Assembly: GCA_964505005.1 (NCBI GenBank)
Contig: CAZDFQ010000004.1
Span: 5,172 to 69,171 of the forward strand
Length of the DNA stretch: 64,000 bases
Origin: an uncultured Candidatus Saccharibacteria bacterium
GTDB lineage: Bacteria > Patescibacteriota > Minisyncoccia > UBA6257 > 2-01-FULL-56-20
Direction: 5' to 3'
In this document: piece by piece, positions 1,720 through 63,107 of the stretch
Layout of the letters: each line of letters opens with the position of its first letter
How positions within the stretch are numbered: the first letter of the stretch is position 1
Program-made: the position numbers and the translations under genes
Notes under the pieces: model-generated
The model's input: the letters and a program-made list of their open reading frames with translations, nothing else
Told to the model about the DNA's origin: nothing
The model's database searches: none

Positions 1720-3639
1720 ATGATTGTTAACCTTAATCCCCAACAAAAATTGGCTGTTCAGGCAGCGGATAAACCGCTTTTAATCGTGGCCGGCGCCGGA
1801 ACCGGCAAAACCAGAACCCTGACCAGCCGGCTGCTCTACCTTATAAATAAGGGAGTGCCGCCTCAAAATATCGTGGCCATAACCTTTACCAATAAAGCGG
1901 CCAGGGAAATGGCCGAGAGAATACATAATGCGAAAACTGCGAATACTTTAGGCGAATACCGCGAAAATTTTTCGCATCATTCGCATCCGCTTTCGCATCG
2001 TTCGCATTATGCTTCCCCGTTCATTGGCACTTTCCATTCTTTGGGGGCAAAAATTCTTAGGGCTGAAGCTCGGCGGCTCGGCCGAACGCCTGATTTTGTA
2101 ATATTTGATGACAATGATTCTCTCCGGTTAGTGAAGAAAATAGTCAAGTTGACGGAGGAACAACTAACAGGAGTTGAAGAACAAGGACCGGCACCTTTGG
2201 CGGAAAAAATTTCCAAAATCAAAAACGGCATTGTCGCCCCTAATTCTTTTAAAAATTCTGGCCCGACTTTAAGAGTTTTAAAACGTTATGAAGAAGAACT
2301 TCAACGACAAAATGCTTTTGATTTTGACGACTTGATTGAAAAAGTTGTCGAAATTTTCCAAAAACATCCCGAAGTTCTCAAAAAATACCAAAAGCGCTTT
2401 CATTGTTTTCTGGTCGATGAATATCAGGATTTGAACAACAAACAATATGAACTCGTAAAACTGCTGGTTGGCGATTCGTCTCGTTTGTCGGTGGTCGGCG
2501 ATGACCAGCAGATGATCTACAGTTTCCGAGGTTCGAATTTCAAAATTTTCCTCGATTTTGAAAACGACTGGCCAGAAGCCAATGTTATTTTCCTCGAAGA
2601 AAATTACCGTTCGACCAGCAACATCATCAAAACCGCTTCAACTCTGGTTCAAAATAATGTTTACCAAAAACCCAAGATTCTTTGGACGAAAAACGAAACG
2701 GGCCAGCTGGTGAAAATCATCGAAACAGACGATGAAGGCGCGGAGGCGGAGTGGCTCGCCGGACAAGTTGATAAGTTTATAAGTCACGCTAACGCTCAAG
2801 TTGGTAAGTTGGATAATCAAAACTTAAAAACTCACAAACTTAGAGGCCCAGAGACTATCGCGGTGCTCTACCGGACCAATGCCCAGTCGCGGGCCTTAGA
2901 ACAGGCACTGCTCGAAAGAAACCTTCCTTATCAAATTTTTGGCGGGGTCCGATTCTATGAAAGAAAAGAAATAAAAGACATTGTAGCCAGCCTTCGCTGG
3001 GCGCAGAATCCGCAAGACGAGCTCAGTCGCGAACGCTTGGAAAAGAATTTGTCGAAAAGAAAATTTTTAGAATTTCAGAAATCGTTTACTGCTCGGCAGC
3101 GCCTCCGCCCCTCAGAACTAATTCATTTATTTCTAGAAACCACTGGTTATCTCGAGCTTCTGGAAAGAGATTTTTTCAATTTTGAAGAACGCCGAGAAAA
3201 CATTGGCGAGCTGATGAATTTTGCGGCCGGCTTTGAAGAATTGCCTTTATTCCTCGAACAAATTGCTCTTCTTCAGCCGACGGACGATTTAGCGGCAAAT
3301 GGCAAAGCGCGAAGCGCAAAGCGAAATAGACTATTTGCGCCAAGCGATTCGCGACTTGCCGTCAACCTAATGACTATCCATTTAGCCAAAGGACTGGAGT
3401 TTGATACGGTTTTTGTGGCTGGCTGCAACGAAGGAGTCTTGCCCCACGGCCGTTCGCTTAATAGCCAAGCAGAAATTGAAGAAGAGCGGCGGTTGATGTA
3501 TGTGGCGATGACCAGAGCCAAGAAAAAACTTTTTTTAAGTTTTTATGACTGGCCATCAAGATTTTTAGGCGAGCTACCTCAAGAAACCATCGAGTTCGAA
3601 AGTTTATTGGGCGAAGAGCGATACATAGCTCTGGATTAA
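1720..3639 (+). CDS. uvrD: UvrD/PcrA/Rep family ATP-dependent DNA helicase
   Basis: 'AGAGTGKTRTLTSRLLYLI' Walker A, 'TFTNKAAREM', 'TFHS', 'VDEYQD', 'TIHLAKGLEFDTVFV' and 'YVAMTRAKKKLFL' helicase motifs. Contains an in-frame repeat-derived insertion around 1928-2012. Confidence 0.85.
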   Translation: MIVNLNPQQKLAVQAADKPLLIVAGAGTGKTRTLTSRLLYLINKGVPPQNIVAITFTNKAAREMAERIHNAKTANTLGEYRENFSHHSHPLSHRSHYASPFIGTFHSLGAKILRAEARRLGRTPDFVIFDDNDSLRLVKKIVKLTEEQLTGVEEQGPAPLAEKISKIKNGIVAPNSFKNSGPTLRVLKRYEEELQRQNAFDFDDLIEKVVEIFQKHPEVLKKYQKRFHCFLVDEYQDLNNKQYELVKLLVGDSSRLSVVGDDQQMIYSFRGSNFKIFLDFENDWPEANVIFLEENYRSTSNIIKTASTLVQNNVYQKPKILWTKNETGQLVKIIETDDEGAEAEWLAGQVDKFISHANAQVGKLDNQNLKTHKLRGPETIAVLYRTNAQSRALEQALLERNLPYQIFGGVRFYERKEIKDIVASLRWAQNPQDELSRERLEKNLSKRKFLEFQKSFTARQRLRPSELIHLFLETTGYLELLERDFFNFEERRENIGELMNFAAGFEELPLFLEQIALLQPTDDLAANGKARSAKRNRLFAPSDSRLAVNLMTIHLAKGLEFDTVFVAGCNEGVLPHGRSLNSQAEIEEERRLMYVAMTRAKKKLFLSFYDWPSRFLGELPQETIEFESLLGEERYIALD

Positions 3640-3763: not shown

Positions 3764-3769
3764 AAAACT

Positions 3770-10733: not shown

Positions 10734-10741
10734 TTTTATTC

Positions 10742-11335: not shown

Positions 11336-12034
11336 TTGAATTTTAAATTTATTATTATGCCCAAAGAGTTCGGCAATGCCCAAGATTTGGTGACCCTCGA
11401 AGAAATTCGTCAGGATGCCGTTATTTTAAAAGACGGCAGCTTGCACCAGCTGGTGATGGTTGGCGGTCTGAATTTTTCCCTCAAATCAGAGGCTGAACAG
11501 ACGATGATAACCCAGGCCTATCAGAATTTTCTGAACAGTTTGGATTTCCCTGTTCAAATCGTCATTCATTCAAGGAAAATAAACATTGACGATTATCTTG
11601 GCGTTTTAACGGAGCAGATAGCCAAAGAGCCGTCCGAGCTTCTCCAGGGCCAGATTGCCGAATACAAAGAATTCGTGGCTGGTTTTGTCCGGGAAAACCC
11701 CATAATGGCCAAGGTTTTCTTGGTGGTAGTTTCTTTTTCTCCTATTTTCTTTTCCGCTGGTAAACAGGCAGTTGCCAGCTTTCTTCCTTTTTTAAAAAAG
11801 AAAAGTAAGGAGGAAGAAAAAAAATCGCTCCAAGAAAAGGAGGCGGAACTTCAAAAAAATTTGGAGCAGCTTCGCCAGAGAGTGAACCAGGTAGTCAGCG
11901 GCTTGCAGGCCATCGACCTAGAGGCCACGGTATTGGGCGATGAAGAGTTGGTGGAGCTTTTTTACAATTTTTACAACCCCGGCACCATCGAAAAAGAGAA
12001 AATTGCTGCTGATGACCAGACAAAAAAATCCTAA
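11336..12034 (+). CDS. virB4: VirB4/TrbE-family conjugal-transfer ATPase, N-terminal fragment (gene split by repeat insertion)
   Basis: 'DAVILKDGSLHQLVMVGGLNFSLKSEAEQTMITQAYQNFLNSLDFPVQIVIHSRK' matches the VirB4 N-terminal motif. The stop codon lies inside the family A repeat arm. Confidence 0.55.
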   Translation: MNFKFIIMPKEFGNAQDLVTLEEIRQDAVILKDGSLHQLVMVGGLNFSLKSEAEQTMITQAYQNFLNSLDFPVQIVIHSRKINIDDYLGVLTEQIAKEPSELLQGQIAEYKEFVAGFVRENPIMAKVFLVVVSFSPIFFSAGKQAVASFLPFLKKKSKEEEKKSLQEKEAELQKNLEQLRQRVNQVVSGLQAIDLEATVLGDEELVELFYNFYNPGTIEKEKIAADDQTKKS

Positions 12035-13982: not shown

Positions 13983-14044
13983 TGATTTGGATGAATGCTT
14001 TCTAACGCCCTATTCGGATGCTATAATAGTTTTAGAAACTTTAA

Positions 14045-14758
14045 ATGGCTGACGTGGAGAAATTAAGCATTCTGGATCCGCTGGTTATTTTCGCGGCCAT
14101 CGCTGCTTTTATAGGAGATATTTCCTGGCTTATAGCAATTTTTGCTCTGGCCGCGCCTGTTATCGGGCTTCCCCTTGCTCTTTATATTTTGGTCGGGCGT
14201 TATGTGGCCGCAACAATTGTGGGTTTTTCGCTTTGGGCTAAAGCAAAAGGATGGTTAGCTAAAATAGTTTTGATATTGGCTGTGCTTATCCCTTTGCCCT
14301 TGCTTGTTCTTGGTATCATCTTAGTTGTCCTTCTCTCCAATCGCTTTATTAGGTTTTTGGCCGAACAGGCGGTCATTGCCGTTGTCGGCACGGCCACGGC
14401 CGGAGCCGGAGTTGTTGCCGGCGAGGCTGTGGCGGTTGGCGAAGTAGCGGCCGGCGCGGCAGAAATAGCGGCGGCCGGAGGAGAAATTACGGCTGGCGCC
14501 GAGGCGGCCGCCGAAGCCGGAATAACAGCGGAGCGCGCTGTGACTGCCGAAGAAACGGCCACAGCCGAGGCCGGAGTCAGGCCGCCGGAGGCGCCGGAAA
14601 AAGAAATAGCCCCAGAAGCTTTGGGTGAAGAACCAACGCCCTTTGAAAAGCTCCGGGAATTAACCGAAAAAATGCCCGAGGCGCCGGAGAAAAAAGAAAA
14701 AGAGGAAGAGGTTGAAATTGACGATGAAGCCAACGAGGTTAATTTGAAAGAAACATAA
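14045..14758 (+). CDS. Membrane protein with Ala/Glu-rich low-complexity C-terminal tail
   Basis: Four predicted TM helices, then 'AGAGVVAGEAVAVGEVAAGAAEIAAAGGE...' and an acidic tail. Confidence 0.45.
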   Translation: MADVEKLSILDPLVIFAAIAAFIGDISWLIAIFALAAPVIGLPLALYILVGRYVAATIVGFSLWAKAKGWLAKIVLILAVLIPLPLLVLGIILVVLLSNRFIRFLAEQAVIAVVGTATAGAGVVAGEAVAVGEVAAGAAEIAAAGGEITAGAEAAAEAGITAERAVTAEETATAEAGVRPPEAPEKEIAPEALGEEPTPFEKLRELTEKMPEAPEKKEKEEEVEIDDEANEVNLKET

Positions 14759-14836
14759 TGCTAATAATGCGGAATAGCATGCGAATGATGCGGAAGATTT
14801 TCGCGGTATTCGCATAATTAATTCGAGAATTCGCAT
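14750..14836. repeat. Family B palindromic octamer array (mirrored 'ATGCGAAT ... ATTCGCAT' units) in promoter region
   Basis: 'aatgcggaatagcatgcgaatgatgcggaagattttcgcggtattcgcataattaattcgagaattcgcattatg'. Ends with the conserved 'ttcgcattatg' terminal. Confidence 0.55.
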
Positions 14837-14883
14837 TATGCTCAAGGGCAAATGAGTTGGAGTAATGAATTTTAAAAGCAAAG

Positions 14884-15570
14884 ATGAAGATTAAACTATT
14901 GACAAGTCTAATTATCGGTCTGACCGCGATGGTATTTTTTGCCGTCTCTTCAAAGGCCCAAACATCCAAGCCACAGTTTTTAATTACCTGGAAAGCCGAT
15001 TCTTATGCGCCGGCTGATTTCCAAGGGAAAATTTTGCCGACCGCCGGTTCTTTAATCACGACTTCTTTTGAGCTGATTGACCAGGGCAAGCCAGCCGACC
15101 TATCCCAAGAAATGGTTTACTGGTATGTGAACAATGATTTTTTGCGGGGCGGCAACGGACTGCAGAGCATTCGGTTCCAAGCGCCGCAGGCGGCTGGCGG
15201 CGCCATTGATTTAAGAGTTGAAATCCCTAATTACAAGCCGGGCGCTCAACTGAAAACAATCGAGATACCCGTGGCCAGTCCAAAGGCCGTCATCGAGGTG
15301 CCTTTTCCTAACGGAGAATTCTCGGCCTCTCAGCTGGAATTAACTGGCCAGGCATATTTTTTTAATGTTAGAAGTCTATCGCGATTAAACTTTTCCTGGA
15401 ATATAAATGGCCAGACACCAACTGGCGCTGAAAATCCGGCCACCCTAAAAGTAAATATTGGCCAGGATGTGCCGGTCGGTTATCCGGTCAATATAGTCTT
15501 TACTGCTCAAAACCCAGACAGTGTTTTGGAAAAGGCGTCTAAAAATATTTCTTTGGTTTACAAGCCATGA
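14884..15570 (+). CDS. Secreted protein (signal peptide), unknown function, T4SS-like locus
   Basis: N-terminal 'MKIKLLTSLIIGLTAMVFFAVSSKA' signal peptide. ATGA overlap with the next gene. Confidence 0.5.
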   Translation: MKIKLLTSLIIGLTAMVFFAVSSKAQTSKPQFLITWKADSYAPADFQGKILPTAGSLITTSFELIDQGKPADLSQEMVYWYVNNDFLRGGNGLQSIRFQAPQAAGGAIDLRVEIPNYKPGAQLKTIEIPVASPKAVIEVPFPNGEFSASQLELTGQAYFFNVRSLSRLNFSWNINGQTPTGAENPATLKVNIGQDVPVGYPVNIVFTAQNPDSVLEKASKNISLVYKP

Positions 15571-19123: not shown

Positions 19124-19154
19124 AATAAAATCCAGTTTAGGTCGAGCTGATTAT

Positions 19155-19690: not shown

Positions 19691-21049
19691 ATGGAAAAAA
19701 ATCTTGAGCGCCTCTGGCAATCGGTTCTTAGCGAAATCGAGTCTCAGGTTTCGCGGGCTAATTTTGTTACTTGGCTAAAAAATAGTCGAATAGTTGACGA
19801 GCAGGACGGCGCCCTTTTTGTAATTTTGCCGAACAATTTTGCCAAAGAATGGGTAGAAAATAAATATCAGAAAAACCTTCTTGGTATTTGCCGGCAGTTT
19901 GATGATTCTATTAAAAAATTGGAATTCGTGGTTTCCGCCCAGAAAGCCGAGTTAGTAATTTCCAGAAAAAATCCGGTGGTTGTCGGCTTTGAAAACAAAA
20001 TGAATCTCGAGTTCCAAACCGACCAAGAGACCAGCCTTAATCCTCGTTATACTCTCAACTCTTTTGTTGTCGGTTCGTCGAACGAACTGGCGTTCAGCGC
20101 GGCCAATGCTGTTGTCCAAGGCGTCGGCACCAAATACAATCCGTTTTTTGTTTACGGCGGCGTGGGCCTTGGCAAAACCCATTTAATTCAAGCTATTGGC
20201 AACGAAATCAAGGCTCTTTACCGCGGCAAGGTAAGGCCCAAGTATGTGCCCTCAGAAAGATTCACCAGCGATGTTGTCTGGGCCATCCGGAATAAACGAA
20301 TGGAGGATATAAAAAAGAAATATCGCGACGTCGATGTCCTTATAATTGATGACATTCAATTCATCGGCGGCAAAGAAAAAACCGAAGAAGAATTTTTTCA
20401 TACTTTTAATGCGCTTTATGAAAACAACAAGCAGATTATTATTTCCTCGGACCGGCCGCCGCAGTCAATTCCGACCCTGGAAGAGCGGCTGCGGTCGCGA
20501 TTTGAGGGGGGCTTGATAGCTGATATTGTTTATCCGGAGTATGAAATGAGGGTGGCGATAATTAAAAGCAAGCTCCAAGAGAACAGTCGCGAATTAAAGG
20601 AGGAAATTATTGATTTAATCGCCCGCAAAGTAAAAAAGAATATCCGGGAACTGGAGGGGGTGCTGAATAAAATTCTTTTTTATCATGAAATGAAAGGTGT
20701 TCCGATTACCGAGAAGGCGGCTGAAGAAATAATTGAAAAATCCATTCAAAATTTCAGCCGGCGCGTTAGTGATTCCCAAATTATCAAGTCAGTGGCTGAA
20801 TTTTATAATATTTCGGTTGATGATTTAGTGGGGCAGGCTAGAAAAAAAGAAATTGTCGAGCCGCGCCAAATCGCCATGTATTTACTTCGGGATATGTTGG
20901 ATATGTCTTATCCTTACATCGGGGAAAAACTGGGGAAGGACCACACCACTGCCATTCACGCGGTAAGAAAAATAAACCAGGAAATCAACAGGAATTCTTC
21001 GTTAAACCAGAAGATTATTTCAATCAGAGAATTAATTTACGGCAACTAA
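19691..21049 (+). CDS. dnaA: Chromosomal replication initiator DnaA
   Basis: 'NPFFVYGGVGLGKTHL' Walker A, 'LIIDDIQF', and the C-terminal 'MYLLRDMLDMSYPYIGEKLGKDHTTAIHA' DnaA-box-binding domain. Confidence 0.95.
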   Translation: MEKNLERLWQSVLSEIESQVSRANFVTWLKNSRIVDEQDGALFVILPNNFAKEWVENKYQKNLLGICRQFDDSIKKLEFVVSAQKAELVISRKNPVVVGFENKMNLEFQTDQETSLNPRYTLNSFVVGSSNELAFSAANAVVQGVGTKYNPFFVYGGVGLGKTHLIQAIGNEIKALYRGKVRPKYVPSERFTSDVVWAIRNKRMEDIKKKYRDVDVLIIDDIQFIGGKEKTEEEFFHTFNALYENNKQIIISSDRPPQSIPTLEERLRSRFEGGLIADIVYPEYEMRVAIIKSKLQENSRELKEEIIDLIARKVKKNIRELEGVLNKILFYHEMKGVPITEKAAEEIIEKSIQNFSRRVSDSQIIKSVAEFYNISVDDLVGQARKKEIVEPRQIAMYLLRDMLDMSYPYIGEKLGKDHTTAIHAVRKINQEINRNSSLNQKIISIRELIYGN

Positions 21050-21172
21050 TTAACAGGACATTAAGTTTCCTAATTTTAAAAAAATAGGAATTGCAAGGGT
21101 TGTTAGGCGATTGGCAGAGAAACCGCCTTTTCTTAAAAACAACAACTATAAAATAATTTTATAAATATTATT

Positions 21173-22285
21173 ATGAAGTTGGTTATTATAAAGAATAATT
21201 TGAAAGAGGGAATTTCGGCTGTTAGTCGGGCGGCTGGAGAAAATCTAAATTTGCCCATTCTTAAAAACATTCTTTTAGAAACCGAAAGCGGCAAGCTTAA
21301 ATTGGCCGCCACCAACCTCGAATTAGCCGTCAGCTTTCATGCCTCCGGGAAGATAATCGAAAACGGCAGACTAACCGTCCCTCTTAATGTTTTCTCGGAA
21401 TTAATTAATAATATTTCGAGCGAGCGGCTCAACTTGGAAAGCCGGAAAAACATTCTGGAAATAAAAACCGATAATTATCAAGCTAGCCTTCGCGGCGCAG
21501 CGGCCGACGAATTCCCCTTAATTCCTAAAATAAAAAACACCAAAGAGTGCCTAGAATTTGATTCGGCGGTGCTTAAAGAGGCCTTAGGCCAAGTCATCGT
21601 CGCCTCCCAAATTTCCGAACTAAGACCAGAACTAAACAGTATTTTTTTTAATTTTTCGCTGGACAGCTTGAAAATTGTGGCCACCGACAGCTTTCGTTTG
21701 GCGGAAAAAACCTTGGCGGCTAACCAATTCCAGTCAAATCACCAAGAACCGTTTTCTTTGCTGCTACCCCTCCGCAGCGGCCAAGAACTGTTAAGAGTTT
21801 TTGACAACGAAGGAAAAGTCAAAATCTACCACGACGAAAACCAGATTTTATTCGAAACCGACCGACTCGAATTTTTTTCTCGGCTGTCAGAAGGAACCTT
21901 CCCTGATTATCAAGCCGTGGTCCCACAGAAATTCAATGCCGAGGCAAACATTTCCAAGGAGGAGCTTCTAAGCAGCCTTCGGTTGGCCGGCATATTTAGC
22001 AGCCGAACCAGCGAAGTAAAAGTTAAAATTTTAGAAAACAAAAAGGCCTTAGAAATTTCTTCTTCAGACCAAACAGTCGGCGAAAATAGTTATTTGTTGC
22101 CAGCCAGGCTTCAGGGCAGCGCCAAGGAAATCGGTTTCAATTGGCGCTATTTAGCTGATGGCTTGAAAGCGCTCAAAACCGACGAGGCCTTTCTGGCTCT
22201 CAACGACGATAATAAGCCCTCGCTTATCAAATCACCCAACGACGCTTCTTATTTTTATCTTTTAATGCCGGTTCTGCGGGTTTAA
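21173..22285 (+). CDS. dnaN: DNA polymerase III beta sliding clamp
   Basis: 370 aa immediately downstream of dnaA. 'LKLAATNLELAV' clamp N-terminal pattern and three-domain length. Confidence 0.9.
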   Translation: MKLVIIKNNLKEGISAVSRAAGENLNLPILKNILLETESGKLKLAATNLELAVSFHASGKIIENGRLTVPLNVFSELINNISSERLNLESRKNILEIKTDNYQASLRGAAADEFPLIPKIKNTKECLEFDSAVLKEALGQVIVASQISELRPELNSIFFNFSLDSLKIVATDSFRLAEKTLAANQFQSNHQEPFSLLLPLRSGQELLRVFDNEGKVKIYHDENQILFETDRLEFFSRLSEGTFPDYQAVVPQKFNAEANISKEELLSSLRLAGIFSSRTSEVKVKILENKKALEISSSDQTVGENSYLLPARLQGSAKEIGFNWRYLADGLKALKTDEAFLALNDDNKPSLIKSPNDASYFYLLMPVLRV

Positions 22286-24864: not shown

Positions 24865-24973
24865 GATTCCGATTATGAGAACAATACGCTGTTTGGGGGA
24901 CTATTTTCATATTATCGTTGTTTTCTAAATAGTTTGTCAAAAAATTTCTAAATTACTTGTAGAGAGAACAAAC

Positions 24974-27795: not shown

Positions 27796-27838
27796 TCATT
27801 CGCAACATTCGCATAAAAATTCGTATCATTCGCATTAT
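27796..27838. repeat. Family B octamer array upstream of pilB
   Basis: 'cattcgcaacattcgcataaaaattcgtatcattcgcattatg'. Confidence 0.5.
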
Positions 27839-27886
27839 GTTTATATTTATTGCCAATCCTTTTTTTCTGCTCTAAACTTTTAGGTA

Positions 27887-29563
27887 ATGCCCGAACTCAA
27901 GCCCACGGGGCTTCAAAAAAAATTGAGCGAGATGCGCCGCGAAGCCGAGGAACGCGAGGCCCAACGTCGGGCCAAAAAATTCGGCTATCCTTACATTGAC
28001 CTTAGGAAAATTCCTGTGGGCGTTGAGGCCCTGAGATTAATTCCGGAAGCCGAAGCCAAAGAAGCCGAAGCCGCTGCCGTGGAAGCGAGAAGAAGCGAGG
28101 TAGCCGTGGCGACAACCGACCCTGAATCAACGGCTTTCAAAAGCATTATCAAAAAACTTGAAGCCAGCCATTTGACGCTAAAAATTTTCATTGCTTCTAA
28201 AAGCGCCATCGAAAAGGCCTGGGAACTTTATAAATTCATCCCTCAGGAGCGGGAAGAAATCACCGGCAAAGTGGAAATCGAAAAAAAGAATTTCGAGGCG
28301 CTGATGGCGCGGCTGACGAGCTTCCAGTTGGTTCAGAACGAATTCAAGAATTTCGATTTCAAAAAAATTACCACCACCAGGGTTCTCGAAACTATTTTAG
28401 CCGGCAGCTTGGCCATCGCCGCTTCGGACATTCATTTCGAAGCCGAAGAAAGAAAAACCCGAATCCGTTTCCGGGTGGATGGCGTTTTGCACGACATCTT
28501 CGGCGACCTGCCGCTCGATATTTACGACCACCTAATTTCGCGCATCAAGCTTCTTTCCGGCTTGAAAATCAATATCCGCGACGAAGCCCAGGACGGCCGA
28601 TTCACCATTGCCTTGGCGAGCAAGGAAGTAGAAGTTCGGGTTTCGATAATCCCCTCCGAGTTCGGCGAAACGATTGTGATGCGGCTGCTGGACCCCAATG
28701 CCATCAAGGTGGATTTGTCCGGCTTGGGACTGAGGCCGGACGACCTGGAGCTCGTCCAGCGGCAACTCAAAAAACCCAACGGTCTGCTTTTGAACACCGG
28801 CCCAACCGGTTCGGGAAAGACCACTACGCTCTATGCTTTTCTCCGGCAGGTGGCTGGCCCGGAAATCAAAATCATCACCATTGAAGACCCGATTGAATAC
28901 CGGCTTGGGGGGATTGAACAGACCCAGGTTGACCCCAAAGCCGGTTATACTTTTGCGAGTGGCCTGCGCTCAATTTTGCGCCAGGACCCGGACGTGATTC
29001 TGGTCGGCGAAATCCGCGACCGCGACACCGCGGACATTGCGCTTCAAGCCGCCCTGACCGGCCACCTGGTTTTTTCCACTCTCCATACCAACGACGCCAT
29101 CGGCGCGGTGCCGCGGCTGATTGACTTAGGCGTCACCGCGGCGAGCATCGGCCCGGCCGTCAACCTGATTATTGCCCAACGGTTGGTAAGAAAGCTTTGC
29201 GTTTATTGCCGAAAAAAAGTCGAACCAGCCGCAGAATTGAAAAACAAAATAAAAAATTTTCTGGGAAAGCTGCCAGCAAAAATCGACCAGCGGCCATACC
29301 AAGGCCCAACCATCTACAAGTCCGTTGGCTGTGACAAATGTGTTGGCTTCGGCTACAAGGGCCGAATCGGGATTTTCGAGTTTTTTGAGACCGGGCCGGA
29401 ATTCGAGGAAGCGATTTTAAAAGAAGCTTCCGAAGTGGTTTTGGGTAAACTCGCCGAAGAGCAGGGGATGGTAACGATGCAGCAGGACGGCCTGCTCAAG
29501 GTTTTGGCCGGCGTTACCAGTTTTGACGAGCTGGAGAAAATTACCGGAAGCATTGCTTGGTAA
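27887..29563 (+). CDS. pilB: GspE/PilB-family secretion/type IV pilus assembly ATPase
   Basis: 'LLNTGPTGSGKTTTLYAFL' Walker A, 'ILVGEIRD', and tetracysteine 'CVYCRKK...CDKCVGFGYKGRIGIFE'. Confidence 0.85.
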   Translation: MPELKPTGLQKKLSEMRREAEEREAQRRAKKFGYPYIDLRKIPVGVEALRLIPEAEAKEAEAAAVEARRSEVAVATTDPESTAFKSIIKKLEASHLTLKIFIASKSAIEKAWELYKFIPQEREEITGKVEIEKKNFEALMARLTSFQLVQNEFKNFDFKKITTTRVLETILAGSLAIAASDIHFEAEERKTRIRFRVDGVLHDIFGDLPLDIYDHLISRIKLLSGLKINIRDEAQDGRFTIALASKEVEVRVSIIPSEFGETIVMRLLDPNAIKVDLSGLGLRPDDLELVQRQLKKPNGLLLNTGPTGSGKTTTLYAFLRQVAGPEIKIITIEDPIEYRLGGIEQTQVDPKAGYTFASGLRSILRQDPDVILVGEIRDRDTADIALQAALTGHLVFSTLHTNDAIGAVPRLIDLGVTAASIGPAVNLIIAQRLVRKLCVYCRKKVEPAAELKNKIKNFLGKLPAKIDQRPYQGPTIYKSVGCDKCVGFGYKGRIGIFEFFETGPEFEEAILKEASEVVLGKLAEEQGMVTMQQDGLLKVLAGVTSFDELEKITGSIAW

Positions 29564-31690: not shown

Positions 31691-32174
31691 GAAATTTCGC
31701 ACCCATTCCTCGGCTGAAACTAAAAAATTAGGTGAAGAGTTGGCGCGAAAAATTGCGAAAGATGGAGCGCAAAAAAACGCGAAAGATGCGGTCGTCATCG
31801 GCCTGGCTGGCGAACTCGGCAGCGGCAAAACCACTTTTATCCAAGGATTTTTCCGGGGTCTCGGCGTTCGCAAAAAAATCGCCAGCCCAACCTTTGTCTT
31901 GATTAAAAGCTACAAGCTAAAAACTATAAGCTATAAGCTGGCGCATCATATTGACGCTTATCGTCTTAAAAAGCCAGGCGAGCTCCTTGCCTTGGGCTTT
32001 AAAGAAATTATTAAAAACCCGGAGAACATTGTTTTAATCGAGTGGGCGGATAGAATGAAGAAATTGCTTCCCGAATCAGCGGCTAAGCTGCGTTTTAGAC
32101 ACGGCCGAACAGAAAATGAAAGGACCATAAAAATTAAACAATGTAAACAATGCCGGGAAATTTTACAACTATAG
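31668..32174 (+). CDS. tsaE: tRNA threonylcarbamoyladenosine biosynthesis protein TsaE (C-terminus extended into an IS-end remnant)
   Basis: 'GLAGELGSGKTTFIQGF' P-loop. The last ~15 codons read through the 27-bp IS terminal repeat copy at 32141-32167. Confidence 0.75.
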   Translation: MVKMRHVKKFRTHSSAETKKLGEELARKIAKDGAQKNAKDAVVIGLAGELGSGKTTFIQGFFRGLGVRKKIASPTFVLIKSYKLKTISYKLAHHIDAYRLKKPGELLALGFKEIIKNPENIVLIEWADRMKKLLPESAAKLRFRHGRTENERTIKIKQCKQCREILQL

Positions 32175-33542
32175 CACGCTTTCCTCGAACGGCGCCGGCA
32201 CCACGGCCTCGACCGCATACTCGTCCCTGATTTTTTGGGCCAAAACCTCGCTGGCCCCTTTCTCTCCCTGGACCACGAAAACTTTTTTTAAGGAAAGCCG
32301 CATCGGCTTAAGCCAATCCAAAAGCTGCTGCTGGTCAGCGTGCGCCGAATAAGCGCTTATCTCTTTGACCCGGCATTTCACTGGAACCTCCTCGCCGAAG
32401 ATTCTGACGCTTTTCGCGCCTTCAAGAATTCTCCGGCCGAGCGAGCCGCTGGCCTGGTAACCGACGAAAAGAATTGTGCTTTTCGGGTCCGGCAGATAAC
32501 GTCGTTCATGATGAAGAATCCGGCCGCCGTGAGACATTCCCGAGCCGGCGATGATTATTTTCGGAGCCGGCGCCTCGTTTATCTCTTTTGACTGCTCGGT
32601 GGTCAGCGTCAGCCGCAAACCGGGGAAATTTAAAATGTCCCCGTCTTTATCCTCTTTCTCTGCCCTTAAAACATCTTTATTGAAATAATTCTCGTATTTT
32701 TCATAAATAGCGGTCAGTTTAATCGCCAAGGGGCTGTCAATGAACACCGGCGCCCGCGGCACCCGGCCTTCTTCAAAAAGCTGATGCAAATGATAAAGCA
32801 GGTCCTGGGTCCGTTCCATGGCAAAAGCCGGAATCAAAAGAACGCCGCCGGCCCGGACCGCGTCTTCAATGGCGTCTTCCAGCATTTCCCTCCGCTTTTC
32901 CACTGGTTCGTGAAGCCGGTCGCCGTAAGTTGATTCAATCAGACAATAATCCGCCCGAGAAATTTTTTCCGTTGGCTGGATAAGCGGTGCCGGCGAATTG
33001 CCCAGGTCGCCGGAGAAAACAATTGTCTTGTTTTCCGCCTGGATTTTTATTATGGTTGAACCCAAAATGTGGCCAGCATCGAAAAATTCGACTCGGAAGC
33101 CGCCTACTTCAACCGGCTGATGGTAATCAACGGTTTTCCAGTTGTCCATCAGCTGCTTGATATCATCGGTTGCGTAAAGCCGCGGCCGGCCTTCCTGTTC
33201 AGCTTCTTTTTCCAAAATATGCTCCGAGTCAAGAAGCATCAGTTCGGCAAAATCTCTGGTGGCTGGCGTGGAATAAACATTGCTCTTGAAGCCGTCTTTC
33301 AAAAGTTTGGGCAACCGGCCGATGTGGTCAATGTGGGCATGAGTTATAAAGACCGCCTCTATCTCGGCTGGATTGTAAGGGAACGGCTCGAAATTCTTTT
33401 TCTCGGCAAAATGGCTGCCCTGCATCAACCCGCAGTCGATGAGTATACGAGTCGACCCTGAGCCCGTCGAAGGGCCACTTATCTCCAATAAATAGTTCGA
33501 CCCGGTAACCGTTCCCACGCCGCCGTAAAAGATTAAACGCAT
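32169..33542 (-). CDS. MBL-fold/beta-CASP ribonuclease (RNase J-like)
   Basis: 'HAHIDHIGRLP' metallo-beta-lactamase motif plus a beta-CASP region; 457 aa. Confidence 0.7.
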   Translation of the reverse strand: MRLIFYGGVGTVTGSNYLLEISGPSTGSGSTRILIDCGLMQGSHFAEKKNFEPFPYNPAEIEAVFITHAHIDHIGRLPKLLKDGFKSNVYSTPATRDFAELMLLDSEHILEKEAEQEGRPRLYATDDIKQLMDNWKTVDYHQPVEVGGFRVEFFDAGHILGSTIIKIQAENKTIVFSGDLGNSPAPLIQPTEKISRADYCLIESTYGDRLHEPVEKRREMLEDAIEDAVRAGGVLLIPAFAMERTQDLLYHLHQLFEEGRVPRAPVFIDSPLAIKLTAIYEKYENYFNKDVLRAEKEDKDGDILNFPGLRLTLTTEQSKEINEAPAPKIIIAGSGMSHGGRILHHERRYLPDPKSTILFVGYQASGSLGRRILEGAKSVRIFGEEVPVKCRVKEISAYSAHADQQQLLDWLKPMRLSLKKVFVVQGEKGASEVLAQKIRDEYAVEAVVPAPFEESVL

Positions 33543-33555: not shown

Positions 33556-33626
33556 CATCCGAATAGCGCTCGCTCGCGCTGCGCACTCGCGAAATCCGAA
33601 TGCGCCCATCCGAATTATCAGAAATT
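33556..33626. repeat. Family B-like 'ATCCGAAT' repeat array
   Basis: 'catccgaatagcgctcgctcgcgctgcgcactcgcgaaatccgaatgcgcccatccgaatt'. Confidence 0.4.
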
Positions 33627-47477: not shown

Positions 47478-47593
47478 TAATTCATTCGGATGGGCGCATT
47501 TGCCCGCCTGCCAGCGCCTTCGGCGCAAGCCGGTGGCGGGCAGGTAGCGCGCTATTCGGATGCCAAAGGTCGGGACCGGAAACCATATTATTT

Positions 47594-48091: not shown

Positions 48092-49285
48092 ATGAAGGAG
48101 GATTGGAAATTTTTTTGGGGTAGCGCTGGTTTATTGGCGGCCACGACCATCGGCGCCGGAATCTTTTCCCTGCCTTATGTTTTTAACAAAGCCGGCTGGC
48201 TGACCGGCGTTTTTTATTTGGCGGTTTTAAGTGGAATTCTGATTTATGTTCATTATCTATACTGGCGAGCCTTGACTGAATTGAAAGAGAAAAATCGCTT
48301 GCTTGGTTTGATAAAAAATTATTTAGGAGAAAAATTTTTTTATTTCGGCTTGGCAACGGTTGTCGGAGGCCTAACTTTGACATTGGTCGTTTATCTTGTT
48401 TTGAGCAGTCAGTTTTTGAAACTGATTTTCCCGACGATTTCTTTGAAAGAAGGAATTCTGGTTTTTTGGCTGTTGGCGTCCTTGCCGCTTGCCTGGCGAT
48501 TGCCTTGGCTGGTGTTTTTTGAATTTAGCGGCACTCTTTTAATGGCCGGAATCATTGTTTTGGTCCTGATAAATGGCTGGGGGAAGGGGATTGGGTCAGC
48601 TGGCGTTCCAGCTTTTAATTTCGATAATATTTTTCTGCCTTTCGGAGCGGTGCTTTTTTCTTTGGCTGGCTGGACCGCCATCGAGCCGATTTTTGACTGG
48701 AAAAAGAAATTGGAAGATGGCTATCGACCGCCTAATCCGAATATCCAAATGCATCTGAATGTTCCGAATAGATTTAAGAAGGAGGCAGTAGAGTCGAAAA
48801 TCGGTTTATCCGGCTTGGCGGCTGGCACTTTAATTCCGGCTTTTCTTTATCTTGTCTTTGTGCTCGGAATTTTGGGCTCAGCCGGGGAAATAACACCAGA
48901 TACTCTTTCTGGACTGACTAATTGGCAATTTTGGAAATTGGCAAGTTTAGGGTGGTTGGGGCTTTTGGCAATTTTGACTTCTTATGTGCCGATTGCCTTG
49001 GAAATTAAAAACTCTTTGACAAAAGATTTGGGATGGAATGCCGGCTGGAGCACTCTGGCGGTTGTATTTTCACCTCTCGTTTTGGTGGTATTAGGATTGC
49101 GTAGTTTTTTCTCGGTCGTCAGCTTGGCCGGCGGCATTTTCCTCGGACTTCAATATCTCCTTATCATCTTGGTGGCTAAAAAAATTTTGTCGCTGGACCG
49201 CTTTCAAAAAATCTTTCTTAATGTCTTAGCCGCTGTCTTTATTTTAGCCGCTGTTTACGAGGCCTATCATTTTCTGATAAGATAA
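48092..49285 (+). CDS. Amino-acid permease-like polytopic transporter
   Basis: About 11 predicted TM helices; 397 aa. Confidence 0.55.
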   Translation: MKEDWKFFWGSAGLLAATTIGAGIFSLPYVFNKAGWLTGVFYLAVLSGILIYVHYLYWRALTELKEKNRLLGLIKNYLGEKFFYFGLATVVGGLTLTLVVYLVLSSQFLKLIFPTISLKEGILVFWLLASLPLAWRLPWLVFFEFSGTLLMAGIIVLVLINGWGKGIGSAGVPAFNFDNIFLPFGAVLFSLAGWTAIEPIFDWKKKLEDGYRPPNPNIQMHLNVPNRFKKEAVESKIGLSGLAAGTLIPAFLYLVFVLGILGSAGEITPDTLSGLTNWQFWKLASLGWLGLLAILTSYVPIALEIKNSLTKDLGWNAGWSTLAVVFSPLVLVVLGLRSFFSVVSLAGGIFLGLQYLLIILVAKKILSLDRFQKIFLNVLAAVFILAAVYEAYHFLIR

Positions 49286-56932: not shown

Positions 56933-58255
56933 ATGCGGTTCATTGCCGATTTACAAATTCATTCCAAATACAGCCGGGCCACCTCCAAAGAAATGGTTTT
57001 GGAAGAAATCGACCGCTGGGCCGGCAACAAAGAGATTTTGGTGATGGGCACCGGCGATTTTACCCATCCGGCCTGGTTTGAAGAAATCAAACAAAAGCTT
57101 GAGCCAGCTGAACCCGGCCTTTTCAAATTAAAAAAAGAATTCAAGTGGCCGACATTGCGCGGCGACTTGTCGGAAACACGTTTCCTTTTGGAAGTGGAAA
57201 TCTCCGGAATTTATTCGCGCCCCTCGGCGCGGCTCGGGGCAAACAAGACCTATCGGATTCACAATCTGATTTTTGCGCCGGACTTAGAAACCGCGGAAAA
57301 AATCAACACTCAGCTCGGCTGGATAGGGAATTTGAAATCTGACGGTCGGCCGATTCTGGGGTTGGACTCCGAAGAACTAGCCAAAATCGTTTTTAATACC
57401 AATCCTCAGGCGGTGATTGTCCCGGCCCACGCCTTCACCCCATGGTTCAGCTTGTTTGGTTCGATGTCTGGTTTTGATTCAATTACAGAATGTTTTGGCG
57501 AATATACAAAATATATCTTTGCTATTGAGACCGGGCTGTCCGCGGATCCTTCGATGTGCTGGCGAATGTCTCAACTTGATAATATTTCCTTAATATCCAA
57601 TTCCGATTCGCACTCGCTTCAGCGCATTGGCCGCGAAGCCAATATCTTTGACACTGAGCTTTCCTATGAGGGGATAATTGACGCAATCAGGTCTCGCGAC
57701 CCTAAAAAATTTTTAGCCACCATTGAATTTTTTCCCGAAGAAGGCAAATACCATTTGGATGGCCACCGACTCTGCGGCGTGGTCTTCGAGCCGGGCGAGA
57801 CGAAAAAACATAACGGCATCTGTCCCAAGTGTGGCCGGAAGCTGACCATCGGAGTTCTGAACCGAGTGGAAGAATTGGCTGACCGGCCGCCAGTCAAAGT
57901 AGAGATAAGCGGCTATCTTCATAAATACGAAAACCGTGTGCCATTTTATAATCTGGTGGCTCTTGACGAGGTGATTGCCCAAGCTTACGGACTCGGCGTG
58001 GCTTCGCGAAAAGTCAAGTCCGAGTACGAAAACCTGATTAAAAAATTCGGCGGCGAATTCAAAGTTCTAATGGAAACAAATGTTGAGGAATTGCGGGCTG
58101 GCGGCGCGCCGGAAGAAATCATCAAGAGTATTGTCGCGGTGCGCGAGGGCGAGGTGAAATTCGAGCCGCCGGGCTTTGACGGCGAATACGGCAAAATTTC
58201 CATTTTCAGCGAAAACGAAAGAAAAGAAATCGAGCCGCAGAAATCGTTGTTTTAA
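56933..58255 (+). CDS. Endonuclease Q (PHP-domain deaminated-base endonuclease, TIGR00375 family)
   Basis: N-terminus 'IADLQIHSKYSRATSKEM...VMGTGDFTHPAWFEE', 'PAHAFTPWFSLFGS', and 'KYHLDGHRLCG...ICPKCGRKLTIGVLNRVEELAD' are co-linear with archaeal EndoQ, including its zinc finger. Confidence 0.8.
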   Translation: MRFIADLQIHSKYSRATSKEMVLEEIDRWAGNKEILVMGTGDFTHPAWFEEIKQKLEPAEPGLFKLKKEFKWPTLRGDLSETRFLLEVEISGIYSRPSARLGANKTYRIHNLIFAPDLETAEKINTQLGWIGNLKSDGRPILGLDSEELAKIVFNTNPQAVIVPAHAFTPWFSLFGSMSGFDSITECFGEYTKYIFAIETGLSADPSMCWRMSQLDNISLISNSDSHSLQRIGREANIFDTELSYEGIIDAIRSRDPKKFLATIEFFPEEGKYHLDGHRLCGVVFEPGETKKHNGICPKCGRKLTIGVLNRVEELADRPPVKVEISGYLHKYENRVPFYNLVALDEVIAQAYGLGVASRKVKSEYENLIKKFGGEFKVLMETNVEELRAGGAPEEIIKSIVAVREGEVKFEPPGFDGEYGKISIFSENERKEIEPQKSLF

Positions 58256-58265
58256 GCATAATACT

Positions 58266-58333
58266 AATGCCGCGAATTTTTAGACGAATGATACGAATTA
58301 ATTTTATTCGTAGCATTCGAATGCCATTTGTAG
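58266..58333. repeat. Family B-type mirrored 'CGAAT / ATTCG' array
   Basis: 'aatgccgcgaatttttagacgaatgatacgaattaattttattcgtagcattcgaatgccatt'. Confidence 0.5.
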
Positions 58334-58357
58334 ATTTGTATTATATAATATTTCCAA

Positions 58358-58705
58358 ATGAGCTTTTCTTTGATTTATCTCGCGAACCGGTTTTTCTATC
58401 GGCTGGGCGATTTTTTCCATCATTGGTACGCCGACGGCTCTAAAATTTTTTTCAATTACTTTTTGAATTTTTTGGAGCGGCTGGACAGAAAATTTGCCAT
58501 TCGGATTACGCTCCGTTATTTTTTCCAGCCGCTTTATCGCGATTACACCGTAGTCGGCCGGATTCTCGGCGTGATTTTCCGAAGCGGGAGAATTCTAATT
58601 GGCGGCGCGGTTTATGTTTCAGCATCGGTTGTCTTTCTTTTAGTTTATTTTTTATGGCTGGCGATACCGCCGCTTATATTTCTTTATGTCATCGGAGCAA
58701 AATAA
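58358..58705 (+). CDS. Small membrane protein (115 aa)
   Basis: Two C-terminal TM helices; overlaps the next gene by 20 nt. Confidence 0.4.
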   Translation: MSFSLIYLANRFFYRLGDFFHHWYADGSKIFFNYFLNFLERLDRKFAIRITLRYFFQPLYRDYTVVGRILGVIFRSGRILIGGAVYVSASVVFLLVYFLWLAIPPLIFLYVIGAK

Positions 58706-61226: not shown

Positions 61227-61240
61227 ACAAGGCAGCCGCC

Positions 61241-61333
61241 TAATCCGAATTTCCGAATACATCCTAATTATACGAATAAATTCATTCGGGGCATTCGGAT
61301 ATTATTCGGATTCATTCGGATTATGTGGTCTAC
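61241..61333. repeat. Family B-type mirrored 'CCGAAT / ATTCGG' array upstream of polX
   Basis: 'taatccgaatttccgaatacatcctaattatacgaataaattcattcggggcattcggatattattcggattcattcggattatg'. Confidence 0.55.
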
Positions 61334-61349: not shown

Positions 61350-63107
61350 ATGTTGCTTTCCAATTCCGAAATCGCAAAAGTTCTTTATGAAATCGGCGAG
61401 TATCTGGCGATGCAGGATGTTCCGTTCAAGCCTCGGGCTTATGAAAAAGCTGCCTTGGCCATTGAGGGGTTAGAAGAAGAAGCTGGAAATATCTACCAGA
61501 AAGGCGGCTTAAAGGCCTTGGAACAAATTCCGGGCGTCGGGGCTTCCATTGCCGAAAAAGTTGAAGAACTTCTGAAAACCGGCCGGCTCAAATATTACGA
61601 GACGCTCAAAAAAAAGGCGCCGGTCAATCTTTCGGAATTGAGTGCGGTGGAAAGCTTAGGCCCCAAGTCAATAAAAAAACTTTATCAAAAACTCGGCGTC
61701 AAGAATCTGAAAGATTTGGAACGGGCCGCCAGACAGAAAAAGATAAGGAATTTAGAAGGGTTTGGCGAAAAATCCGAAGAGAAAATTCTGACCAGCATTG
61801 AATTTTTGAAAAAGACCAAGGGCCGGTTTTTATTGGGGACGGTTCTGCCGTTTGCCAGAATGCTGGAGGAGCGCCTGAATAATTTGCCGGAAGTCGAAAA
61901 AGCCATTGTGGCCGGCTCGGTGCGTCGCCGAAAAGAGACCATTGGCGACATTGATATTCTGGTTACGGTCAAAAAGAGTAAGGCGGCTTCAAACAAGGCC
62001 AGCGCTAAGATTATGGATTATTTCGTGACTATGCCCGAAGTCGGCCGGGTGCTGGCCAAAGGGGAAACCAAGTCAGCGGTAACTTTTTCCTGGGGCTTGG
62101 ACGCTGACTTGCGGGTGGTGCCCGAAGAGTCCTATGGCGCAGCCCTCAATTATTTCACTGGCTCCAAAGACCACAATGTGGCTTTGCGTCAGCTGGCCAT
62201 AAAGCACGGCTGGAAACTGAATGAATACGGGTTGTTTAGGCGAATCGCAAAGCGCGAGGCGCAAATCGCCGGCGAGACCGAAGAGGGTTTATATAAAGCG
62301 CTTGGAATGGATTATATCGAACCGGAAATGCGCGAGAACACCGGAGAAATTGAATTAGCTCAGAAGTATAAGCTTCCCAAGCTTATCGGCTACCACGACC
62401 TGCAGGGCGATTTGCAGACCCAGACTGACTGGACTGACGGCTCTGATTCCATCGAGGATGTGGCTAAAGCTGCCTGGAAAGCCGGCTTGAAATATATCGC
62501 CATCACCGACCATACCAAGCGGCTGGCAATGACCCGCGGTCTGGATGAGAAAAAAATCATCAGGCAGATGGCGGAAATCGACCGGGTCAACAAAAAACTC
62601 GGCGGCAAAATAAAAATCTTAAAAGGCACGGAATGCGATATTTTAAAAGACGGCACCCTTGATTTGCCGGACAAAATTTTGGCCAAACTCGAAGTGGTGG
62701 GCGTGTCAGTCCATTCTTTGTTCAATTTGAGCCGCCGCGACCAGACCGAACGGCTGAAACGGGCGATGGCCAATCCGCACGCGGACATTCTTTTCCATCC
62801 AACCGGCCGCTTAATTCACAAGCGCGAGGCCTATGATGTTGATATGGAGGAAATTATTTCTTTTGCCAAAAAAACCGGCACGATTCTCGAAATCAACGCC
62901 GAGCCGGACCGGCTGGACTTGAAAGATGAATACATCAGGAAAGCCGTGGAAGCCGGCGTCAAAATGAGCATTGACTCCGACAGCCACAGCGCGCTTCAAT
63001 TCGCCTTTCTCGAATTCGGCCTCAGCCAAGCAAGAAGAGGTTGGGCAACCCGTGGAGATATTATCAATGCTTGGCCTTTGGAGAAAATGAAAAGTTTTCT
63101 TAAATAA
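61350..63107 (+). CDS. polX: DNA polymerase X family protein with C-terminal PHP domain
   Basis: N-terminal HhH 'LEQIPGVGASIAEKV', Pol-beta core 'GSVRRRKETIGDIDILV', and C-terminal PHP 'LQTQTDWTDGS...ITDH'. Confidence 0.85.
   Translation: MLLSNSEIAKVLYEIGEYLAMQDVPFKPRAYEKAALAIEGLEEEAGNIYQKGGLKALEQIPGVGASIAEKVEELLKTGRLKYYETLKKKAPVNLSELSAVESLGPKSIKKLYQKLGVKNLKDLERAARQKKIRNLEGFGEKSEEKILTSIEFLKKTKGRFLLGTVLPFARMLEERLNNLPEVEKAIVAGSVRRRKETIGDIDILVTVKKSKAASNKASAKIMDYFVTMPEVGRVLAKGETKSAVTFSWGLDADLRVVPEESYGAALNYFTGSKDHNVALRQLAIKHGWKLNEYGLFRRIAKREAQIAGETEEGLYKALGMDYIEPEMRENTGEIELAQKYKLPKLIGYHDLQGDLQTQTDWTDGSDSIEDVAKAAWKAGLKYIAITDHTKRLAMTRGLDEKKIIRQMAEIDRVNKKLGGKIKILKGTECDILKDGTLDLPDKILAKLEVVGVSVHSLFNLSRRDQTERLKRAMANPHADILFHPTGRLIHKREAYDVDMEEIISFAKKTGTILEINAEPDRLDLKDEYIRKAVEAGVKMSIDSDSHSALQFAFLEFGLSQARRGWATRGDIINAWPLEKMKSFLK

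Follow-up and report, generated by a model that had tools for sequence, protein, structure and literature searches.

A dispersed family of palindromic octamer arrays in Patescibacteria, with an in-frame copy in uvrD

Family B is a family of short palindromic octamer arrays that occurs in a 64,000-nt stretch (the window; 87% coding) of a Patescibacteria (Candidate Phyla Radiation, CPR) contig, Liptonbacteria-like in its affinities. One copy lies in frame in uvrD, the gene of a UvrD/PcrA helicase. The family is a dispersed Patescibacteria repeat and is not private to the source genome: its arm is kept in metagenome-assembled genomes (MAGs) of many lineage labels. What is conserved appears to be the arms, neither the encoded peptide nor the centre of the element, and comparison of related genomes points to purifying selection at the nucleotide level, also inside uvrD. 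A preliminary description of this DNA had recognized the family and missed three points: the 42-bp four-octamer unit, its spread over many Patescibacteria lineage labels, and the nucleotide-level purifying selection that the alignments indicate. The explanation that we prefer, with confidence about evenly divided for and against, is that family B is a dispersed repeat resembling the Rickettsia palindromic elements (RPE) and the Correia elements, whose arms are selected as putative protein-binding arrays on double-stranded DNA (dsDNA) at gene boundaries.

The arm, the mirrored element and the copy in uvrD

The arm of ~42 bp has the form ATTCGNAT-N-ATTCGNAT-N3-4-ATTCGNAT-N-ATTCGNAT, followed by TAT(G/A) or CGC(T). 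Its four octamers have a start-to-start (core) spacing of 9, 12 and 9 bases; since 9 + 12 = 21 bp, pairs of units recur every two helical turns. Two arms in inverted orientation, with 0-25 nt between them, make up the mirrored element (~85-90 bp). The metagenome sample on which the following counts are based consists of 95 unique copies among the matches listed for an exact arm pattern (see below): they comprise 25 mirrored elements, 12 that are partly mirrored and 58 with one arm only. In 79 of the copies the middle spacer has 4 nt, and the single-base spacer is C in about two thirds (N varies, mostly T, C or G). The two arms of an element do not mirror each other exactly, the best-conserved subfamily having TATCAT as the junction of one arm and TAGAAT as that of the other. 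There are two types of terminus, ATAAT...ATTAT and GCGAT...ATCGC, which covary between arms. Tandem forms also exist, L243 carrying a 48-nt repeat of whole arms downstream of thyA.

The features in and around the helicase gene are the following.

1720..3639, plus strand: host gene uvrD/pcrA (639 aa; phmmer match to PcrA in the PDB, E = 2.7e-109)
1924..2011, no strand assigned: mirrored family-B element, in frame in uvrD (codons 69-98); left arm ~1928-1966, right arm 1969-2009
3301..3360, no strand assigned: second in-frame palindrome in uvrD, with GCGAAG/GCGAAA ... TTCGCG units in a layout unlike family B; DNA fold z = -4.03

The best named relatives of this UvrD/PcrA are from 'Candidatus Liptonbacteria' and Paceibacterota MAGs, the closest being 63% identical. 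The element at 1924-2011 is an 88-nt quasi-palindrome (CATAATGCGAA...TTCGCATTATG, centre GCGAAAATTTTTCGC; in full, CATAATGCGAAAACTGCGAATACTTTAGGCGAATACCGCGAAAATTTTTCGCATCATTCGCATCCGCTTTCGCATCGTTCGCATTATG) with four cores in each half, CGAA to the left of the centre and TTCG to its right, bearing out the arrangement (CGAAT-orientation left, ATTCG right) that had been proposed for it. It folds as a nested hairpin with 6-11-bp stems and with 3x3 and 8x7 internal loops (RNA, -35.1 kcal/mol, z = -5.65; DNA, -23.4 kcal/mol, z = -4.48). The open reading frame (ORF) is continuous through the element, which is translated to ...IHNAKTANTLGEYRENFSHHSHPLSHRSHYASP... between TFTNKAAREM (motif Ia) and TFHS; frame, peptide and place had been given correctly. 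In alignment to PcrA (1PJR) the insert falls in the loop that joins motif Ia to the TFHS strand; this loop has ~12 residues in PcrA and ~33 in the window UvrD. That the insertion is lineage-specific, as had been suggested, is upheld by its being missing from the PcrA, UvrD1, UvrD and Rep structures and from 13 of 30 CPR orthologues, where the loop is short. The AlphaFold2 (AF2) model of the protein (mean pLDDT, the model's per-residue confidence, 76.5) has low-confidence loops at residues 77-97, 366-376 and 528-544. All three variable loops are modeled as coil with pLDDT < 50. Residues 77-97 are situated between helix 58-76 and strand 101-104, in a loop between motifs Ia and Ib. The model leaves these residues unstructured, in keeping with the proposal that the array is tolerated as a surface-loop insertion.

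The gene order comM, M23 peptidase, uvrD, rsmA, and then genes resembling those of type IV secretion systems (T4SS), is common to the window, L001, L121, L122, L123 and L124. Between the window and L001 the UvrD protein is 63-66% identical and the uvrD element 91%; seven of its 8 differences lie in spacers or internal loops, and none is purely synonymous. At four-fold degenerate sites, identity is 10/10 inside the element versus 61/159 (38%, near saturation) outside it (Fisher P = 1e-4). Octamer/stem bases are identical at 57 of 58 positions versus 23 of 30 for spacer bases (P = 0.002), and in this comparison there is no wider tract of raised identity around the element. In L122, L123 and L124 the UvrD loop has arrays of CGAAT x4 / ATTCG x3-4 at the same place. 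A second comparison is provided by a copy in the comM-uvrD spacer of L121 and L122, the arms of which are identical at 87 positions less three (84/87) versus 65% identity at four-fold sites (P = 1e-12); the centre of this copy has diverged, with an indel. The uvrD copy had previously been taken for a mobile element that landed in the gene: it is indeed an in-frame insertion, but not a recent one, same-loop arrays being present in L001, L122, L123 and L124. It is best regarded as an old insertion, the octamers of which are probably kept under nucleotide-level constraint.

The second palindrome of the gene (3301-3360) encodes part of the low-confidence loop 528-544, at which orthologues carry very different inserts. 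A third in-frame candidate, at 2762-2850 in the middle loop, is not supported (z = -0.28). As a separate observation on UvrD loops (window residues 68-99 and 352-377), a peptide pair IMNNEL...HNSQFII is encoded by ATGAAT/ATTCAT units, which are CpG-mutated family B; it is found in loop 2 of many UvrD orthologues and in loop 1 of P0007 and P0010, which places the same array family at two sites of one protein. Among the 95 copies, about 5 lie in long ORFs.

Loci in the window and distribution among genomes

Family-B arrays are real, and they had been over-counted. A strict ungapped palindrome scan and counting of TTCG clusters proved too strict, and searches that allow for spacing or use a profile took their place. 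The window has 7 arms in which four TTCG cores follow the 9/12/9 spacing, and 20 shuffles gave none; the ending described as conserved, TTCG[C/G]ATTATG (TTCGSATTATG), occurs 5 times versus 0.11 expected. The heptamer TTCGCAT taken alone shows no enrichment, with 11 instances in the window versus 16 expected; the signal resides in the array and not in the word. An nhmmer arm profile, built from independent metagenome copies alone, with E < 0.01 defining a clear locus, finds arms at five window loci: 1971-2009, 14756-14792, 27797-27837, 58272-58327 and 61243-61323. Four of the five are intergenic (P = 0.0012, given that 87% of the window is coding). The loci outside uvrD, clear and otherwise, are these.

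14754..14840, no strand assigned: mirrored family-B element between ORF 14045..14758 and ORF 14884..15570, DNA fold z = -2.38; its CATAAT terminus contains the TAA stop (14756-14758) of the upstream ORF
27797..27839, plus strand: one-armed family-B array that matches the profile better than any other window locus (E = 4e-11), situated upstream of pilB (27887..29563) in the divergent spacer; a promoter-like TTGCCA-17-TAAACT begins 10 nt past its end
58257..58346, no strand assigned: mirrored family-B element with degenerate right end, DNA fold z = -3.90; it begins 1 nt past the stop of ORF 56933..58255, and the TATAAT-N8-ATG of ORF 58358 comes after it
61240..61325, no strand assigned: mirrored family-B element (ATCCGAAT / ATTCGGAT units), DNA fold z = -5.03, between clpB (58686..61226) and polX (61350..63107), with TATAAT at 61334-61339
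33594..33618, minus strand: partial array of two to three ATTCGGAT units, a weak remnant (profile E = 0.02) upstream of the beta-CASP/RNase J-like gene 32169..33542, with a further unit in ATTCGGATGCTATAAT, 6 nt before the ATG
48735..48770, minus strand: degenerate single arm, a weak remnant (E = 0.03), in frame in the amino-acid permease ORF 48092..49285, where it encodes PNPNIQMHLNVPN
14012..14027, plus strand: single octamer fused to an extended -10 (ATTCGGATGCTATAAT), no array, upstream of ORF 14045; E = 4.5
47481..47565, plus strand: G+C-rich hairpin between two direct ATTCGGATG octamers, no family-B array; E > 1

The preliminary description had placed arrays in at least 8 promoter regions. 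Five clear loci stand, and two degenerate remnants are all that can be added to them. The mirrored elements reported near 14750, 58266 and 61241 are confirmed by the profile and by the 9/12/9 spacing. Near 27796 there is a clear family-B arm, but only one, and the array is hence not mirrored; near 33556 there are two units (33594-33618) but no full mirrored array. The palindromic arrays reported near 13988 and 47481 fall away, leaving single ATTCGGATG octamers (14012-14021, and 47481/47554; E > 1).

The profile search also finds the arm absent from the non-coding segments 19124-19690 (rnpA-dnaA, 567 nt) and 21050-21172 (dnaA-dnaN), which probably include oriC. DnaA boxes (9-mers near TTATNCACA) were considered as the identity of the units and rejected, both because no arms lie around dnaA/dnaN (19691..22285) and because the position that aligns to the conserved C of CACA is the variable N. 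With Rfam 15 at the gathering threshold, tRNA-Arg alone is matched in the window, and the family-B element has no match.

Beyond the window, a first pattern applied to a genome collection (TTCGNATN{2,3}TTCGSATTATG) was too loose: most of its 119 matches are due to chance and are scattered over unrelated phyla, ~25 Patescibacteria loci among them being real. The real arrays are in MAGs labeled Portnoy-, Nealson-, Sungii-, Wildermuth-, Moran- and Liptonbacteria, Paceibacterota, and some 'Saccharibacteria'; the sole real array found with this pattern under a label other than Patescibacteria is on a 2.4-kb contig binned as Bacteroidia. The exact arm pattern, with 28 specified bases (so that chance matches are negligible), matched at least 120 metagenome contigs and none of 2.9 million viral contigs; a phage origin was rejected on the latter result. 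Neither the arm sequences nor a description of family B had a match in searchable literature and libraries. In hot-spring contigs there are composite direct arrays, [ATCTCTAYTT]n followed by [ATTCGYATN]5, upstream of the TATAAT-N6-ATG of a gene that is tatD-like by its N-terminal reading.

Placement at gene boundaries and competing explanations

Arms lie close to the ends of genes. In 34 of the copies listed the right end is a median of 9 nt from an ATG (range -2 to 44; ORFs of at least 70 aa), and in most of 24 other copies listed it is ~2-13 nt from the stop of a convergent gene. Genes at these boundaries include uvrB, rplT, tsf and rsmA. At several loci the ...ATTATG end supplies with its ATG the start codon of a gene (nadD-, HIT-, tsf- and rsmA-like genes, by N-terminal reading), and uvrB in L193 begins 9 nt past the arm. 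One-armed copies of the listed set that lie in co-directional spacers point toward the downstream start in 6 cases and away from it in 7, implying that the element is not directional; a directional promoter was rejected on these counts.

The preferred explanation takes the ~42-bp four-octamer arm as the unit of selection. On double-stranded DNA, arms would be phased sites for a conserved sequence-specific protein; an arm, being the same duplex site in either orientation, can work either way round. Located right after stops and ~0-30 nt from starts, arms could mark or insulate transcription units, or could supply or modulate the promoters of short-leader or leaderless genes. Copies would spread or turn over in the manner of RPE or Correia elements and would persist nowhere but in the spacers between genes and in disordered protein loops that permit them. 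A more specific version, which we advance tentatively and think rather less than probable, has the arm as the site of a putative Patescibacteria-wide factor that punctuates transcription units (insulator, roadblock terminator and promoter-proximal element in one), with the arms selected at the nucleotide level even within a helicase coding sequence.

Several points weigh against the preferred explanation. The protein that would bind the arms is putative. The conservation comes from two genome pairs and may reflect recent exchange of short segments or gene conversion, and decay of the in-frame copy of L121, each CG core of which is now TG or CA, indicates that the constraint is not universal. 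CPR spacers are very short, so that snug placement at starts and stops is by itself no evidence of function. In a simple scan of three array regions, no canonical -35/-10 promoter (16-18 nt spacing) and no intrinsic terminator (G+C-rich stem followed by a T-run; 0 sites) was found inside arrays. No target-site duplication, transposase or clean empty site was found. Finally, several unit families (family A and others) share the layout, implying either several binding specificities or a cause other than protein, such as DNA shape.

That family B is a purely selfish palindrome of the RPE type, or a miniature inverted-repeat transposable element (MITE), devoid of host function and owing its conservation to recent spread, gene conversion, or segment exchange among co-occurring lineages, is in our judgment unlikely, at perhaps one chance in a handful. 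It is a multi-copy dispersed family with defined inverted termini, its placement is independent of orientation, in-frame copies sit in disordered loops as RPEs do (PMC10969869), orthologous spacers are occupied by different families, and one copy, in L121, has decayed. On the other hand, orthologous copies retain copy-specific spacers and units although four-fold sites of the flanks are saturated (38%) and no wider high-identity tract surrounds them. The arms of the L121/L122 copy are 97% identical while the centre of the same element has diverged, an outcome that recent transfer of the whole element would not yield. The octamer and its 9/12/9 spacing are constant across MAGs of many lineage labels, and no transposase, target duplication or viral carrier has been found.

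Another unlikely candidate, of much the same standing, makes the arm itself a core promoter. The octamer junctions are -10-like (NATNAT: TATCAT, TAGAAT, CATAAT, GATAAT) and would be σ70 -10 hexamers, the last of them followed after 7-8 nt by a purine that is conserved (A in ...TATG, G in ...CGCT) and giving rise to leaderless or very short-leader mRNAs. The invariant AT.AT of the junctions shares 4 of the 6 positions of TATAAT, A2 and T6 among them; start codons coincide with the ATG of ATTATG in the nadD-, HIT-, tsf- and rsmA-like genes; and the 9 nt that separate arm and uvrB in L193 leave no space for another promoter. A Shine-Dalgarno-like motif precedes 7 of 54 window genes, ~9 of the 54 have a strong -10 hexamer 5-11 nt before the ATG, and the arrays of the hot-spring CPR contig L162 lie upstream of TATAAT-N6-ATG. 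(A full-text literature search for Patescibacteria together with leaderless promoters was without result.) Window arrays, on the other hand, lie upstream of separate promoter-like sites or TATAAT boxes (27850-27878, 58341, 61334) and do not replace them. The earlier description had placed arrays in promoters; they adjoin the canonical promoter-like sites that the scan detects and are not inside them. The junctions have no -35 partner. A core promoter also leaves unexplained the four units, the 9/12/9 spacing, the invariant TTCG core, the conservation inside uvrD, and the arms that follow stop codons and point away from any gene start.

Less probable still is an RNA-level role, in which the transcribed mirrored element would terminate transcription, stabilize the upstream mRNA, or be cut (for example by RNase III) to free an mRNA that starts at or near the AUG. 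Mirrored window copies fold well when taken singly (DNA z from -2.4 to -5.0, and RNA z = -5.65 for the uvrD copy), stems match the conserved octamers, seven of the eight differences between the window and L001 fall in internal loops, the termini covary, and the 3' base of the stem often abuts the ATG. Pairing itself, nevertheless, does not appear to be selected. Bases in the variable N and spacer columns of 29 mirrored copies are for the most part unpaired (in 25-28 of the 29 for columns 13/79, 21/71 and 35/58), RNAalifold gives no consensus pairs, and compensatory change is limited to the two terminus types and one coupled column. Complementarity at N positions is 58/144 versus 47.6 +/- 5.5 in shuffles, an excess for which lineage preference can account. 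The one-armed majority (58/95) cannot form the hairpin, and in its two orientations it would be transcribed to two different RNA sequences. The TATCAT versus TAGAAT asymmetry is conserved, there is no T-run, terminator-like site or Rfam family match, and sequence conservation across lineages is unexpected for a purely structural element. Unpaired N and spacers, together with the abundance of one-armed copies in both orientations, favor recognition of each arm as dsDNA over an RNA or cruciform stem.

Least probable is the proposal of the preliminary description that the arrays are operators of one specific regulator with a shared regulon: repeated, phased short sites near gene starts do resemble operators (four direct repeats for tandem response-regulator dimers and ribbon-helix-helix arrays are examples), but neighbors share no theme (pilB, polX and the clpB operon in the window and uvrB, tsf, rsmA, nadD and rplT elsewhere; also a T4SS-like ORF, gatC and thyA), many arms follow stop codons and some copies are inside ORFs, so that a shared specific regulon is unlikely, whether of the SOS/LexA type or any other.

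Known systems, turnover and significance

Rickettsia palindromic elements are inserted in frame in unrelated housekeeping genes, where they encode a surface peptide compatible with function (Ogata et al. 2000, 2002, summarized in PMC10969869). Family B is like them in consisting of short palindromes, in several families, in a reduced genome, located both between genes and in frame in protein genes; its in-frame palindrome is missing from the orthologues of other lineages, and the insert is in a non-structured part of the protein. It differs in length (~85-90 bp versus ~100-150 bp), in having four phased octamers per arm and often a single arm, in extending over many Patescibacteria lineage labels where RPEs are confined to one genus, and in being conserved as nucleotides rather than as peptide (a comparison with RPEs by description only, the organisms being unrelated).

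With the Correia/NEMIS elements, MITEs of Neisseria, family B shares a size of about 100 bp, an intergenic location near gene starts and ends, and inverted-repeat ends (ATAAT...ATTAT or GCGAT...ATCGC). Correia elements can supply promoters, be co-transcribed into hairpins and bind the host protein IHF. They duplicate TA at the target and end in repeats of ~26 bp that lack an internal octamer periodicity; in contrast, neither a target duplication nor an IHF-like site was found for family B, in which one-armed and tandem forms are common.

Repetitive extragenic palindromes (REP) and their mosaic assemblies (BIME) are likewise palindromic, found at gene 3' ends in mosaic inverted arrangement and (REP) bound by host proteins. 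A REP, however, is a single 20-40-nt hairpin with a conserved 5' GTAG head and the family-B arm is an array of direct octamers; REP/BIME was rejected on this difference of layout and because the window ORFs include no REP-associated (RAYT) or Y1 transposase.

The tigRNAs of TIGR-Tas systems contain two variable spacers of 8-10 nt, with box C (CNA) and box D (YG) on their flanks, and are clustered at a tas (Nop-domain) gene (PMC12045711; bioRxiv 10.64898/2026.09.09.750476). They too occur in Patescibacteria; their palindromic units are short, may lie in frame within disordered coding regions, and have 9-nt periodic features. In family B it is the octamers that are conserved, only the 1- and 3-4-nt spacers vary, and there is one CGA-N9-CG interval per strand. 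TIGR/tigRNA was accordingly excluded: the 9/12/9 period is wrong, box C/D-flanked spacers are lacking, and there is no Tas gene, Pfam scans of the 55 main window ORFs and of the ORF at 10319-10615 finding no Nop-domain protein.

Operator and centromere arrays (those of the ribbon-helix-helix proteins omega, ParR and ParG, and the four-repeat sites of OmpR/PhoP-type regulators) are generally similar in having several short, helix-phased units, direct and inverted, beside promoters. They serve one operon or regulon, whereas family B is found at unrelated genes, after stops and inside ORFs.

Turnover of arrays is evident in orthologous spacers, which carry mirrored arrays of differing unit families. 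The uvrD-rsmA spacer, for example, is occupied by family A in the window and by family B in L001, and in L121-L124 by families other than these. The insert is missing from some UvrD orthologues, and other array families are present in orthologous spacers, but a clean empty site was not seen. The flanks of four mirrored window copies have no direct repeat, and the TA in CA-TA-ATG...CAT-TA-TG is inseparable from the terminal repeat. Window ORFs include no Y1 transposase or IS200-like RAYT, the only trace being a sub-threshold fragment of an rve integrase core: the ORF at 46264-46659 matches it over 46264-46656 with 25.9 bits versus a cut-off of 32.6, and is probably the remnant of an insertion sequence. 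What was previously called a mobile short palindromic element is thus a dispersed palindromic family enriched between genes, for which mobility would be a further step; the differing families of orthologous spacers, the decayed L121 copy and the copies inside ORFs fit a life history like that of RPE or Correia elements.

The family A unit (ATTAGGAT) is one base apart from the family B unit ATTCGGAT, and hybrid arms occur (25999-26132). Mirrored family A arrays (AAATCCTAAATCTCTAAA ... TTTAGAGATTTAGGATTT) lie at 3637-3769, 25994-26134 and 43476-43612, also at 12035-12254 and 39830-40032, and take up many of the spacers between genes; at least 7 genes have a right arm ending 0-15 nt ahead of their ATG. 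At 10280-10741 there is an ORF of 98 aa (10319-10615) with family-A arms on both sides, which matches PF05635 (23S rRNA-intervening-sequence protein; E = 8e-13). The arrangement resembles a small element that carries a cargo gene between array arms; L122 has an annotated PF05635 gene at the syntenic position, between PrgI and TraC-like genes. The ruvA-uvrB divergent spacer (36753-36834) is a mirrored array of other units (TTTTCAATG... / ...ATTGATAAT x3), the last GATAAT of which is 5 nt before the uvrB ATG. In L162, an ORF with a tatD-like N-terminus runs into an array of CAAAACT units (13600-13700), and the same units form a mirrored intergenic array at 7130-7260; in-frame arrays of other families seem to be common in CPR genes.

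Other features of the window stand apart from the arrays. Its further genes include rnpA, yidC, dnaA, dnaN, ruvABC, uvrB, fpg, polX, clpB and pilB. An unlisted small ORF in the 286-nt gap after uvrB (38737-38990) reads, by eye on its sequence, like ribosomal protein S20 (MPITKSAKKALRQS...). Near-perfect palindromes of 36-38 nt are located at 24973-25008 and 63711-63748 (CAAAAATCGCTTCGAC...; TTAATTAAGTGTTATGACGCGTCATAAC...), and an imperfect 125-nt palindrome (T-rich arm / A-rich arm) lies inside ORF 11336..12034, at 11715-11838. One intrinsic terminator is obvious, a G+C-rich hairpin of the classic kind with a T-run after it, between convergent genes at 63138-63177; no other obvious one was seen.

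CPR/Patescibacteria account for a large share of bacterial diversity and are mostly uncultivated, and their gene-expression signals are largely uncharted. A cis-element of 42 bp with fixed geometry can serve as bait for the putative binder and as a marker of transcription-unit boundaries in MAGs. Through such arrays conserved proteins acquire variable loops (three in UvrD, of which at least two derive from palindromes), and CPR alignments, phylogenies and structure predictions are affected in consequence. Protein-coding palindromes, so far described mainly from Rickettsia, would extend to a second, unrelated group with reduced genomes, and family B provides evidence, from the comparison of related genomes, that in such a palindrome it may be the DNA and not the peptide that is conserved.

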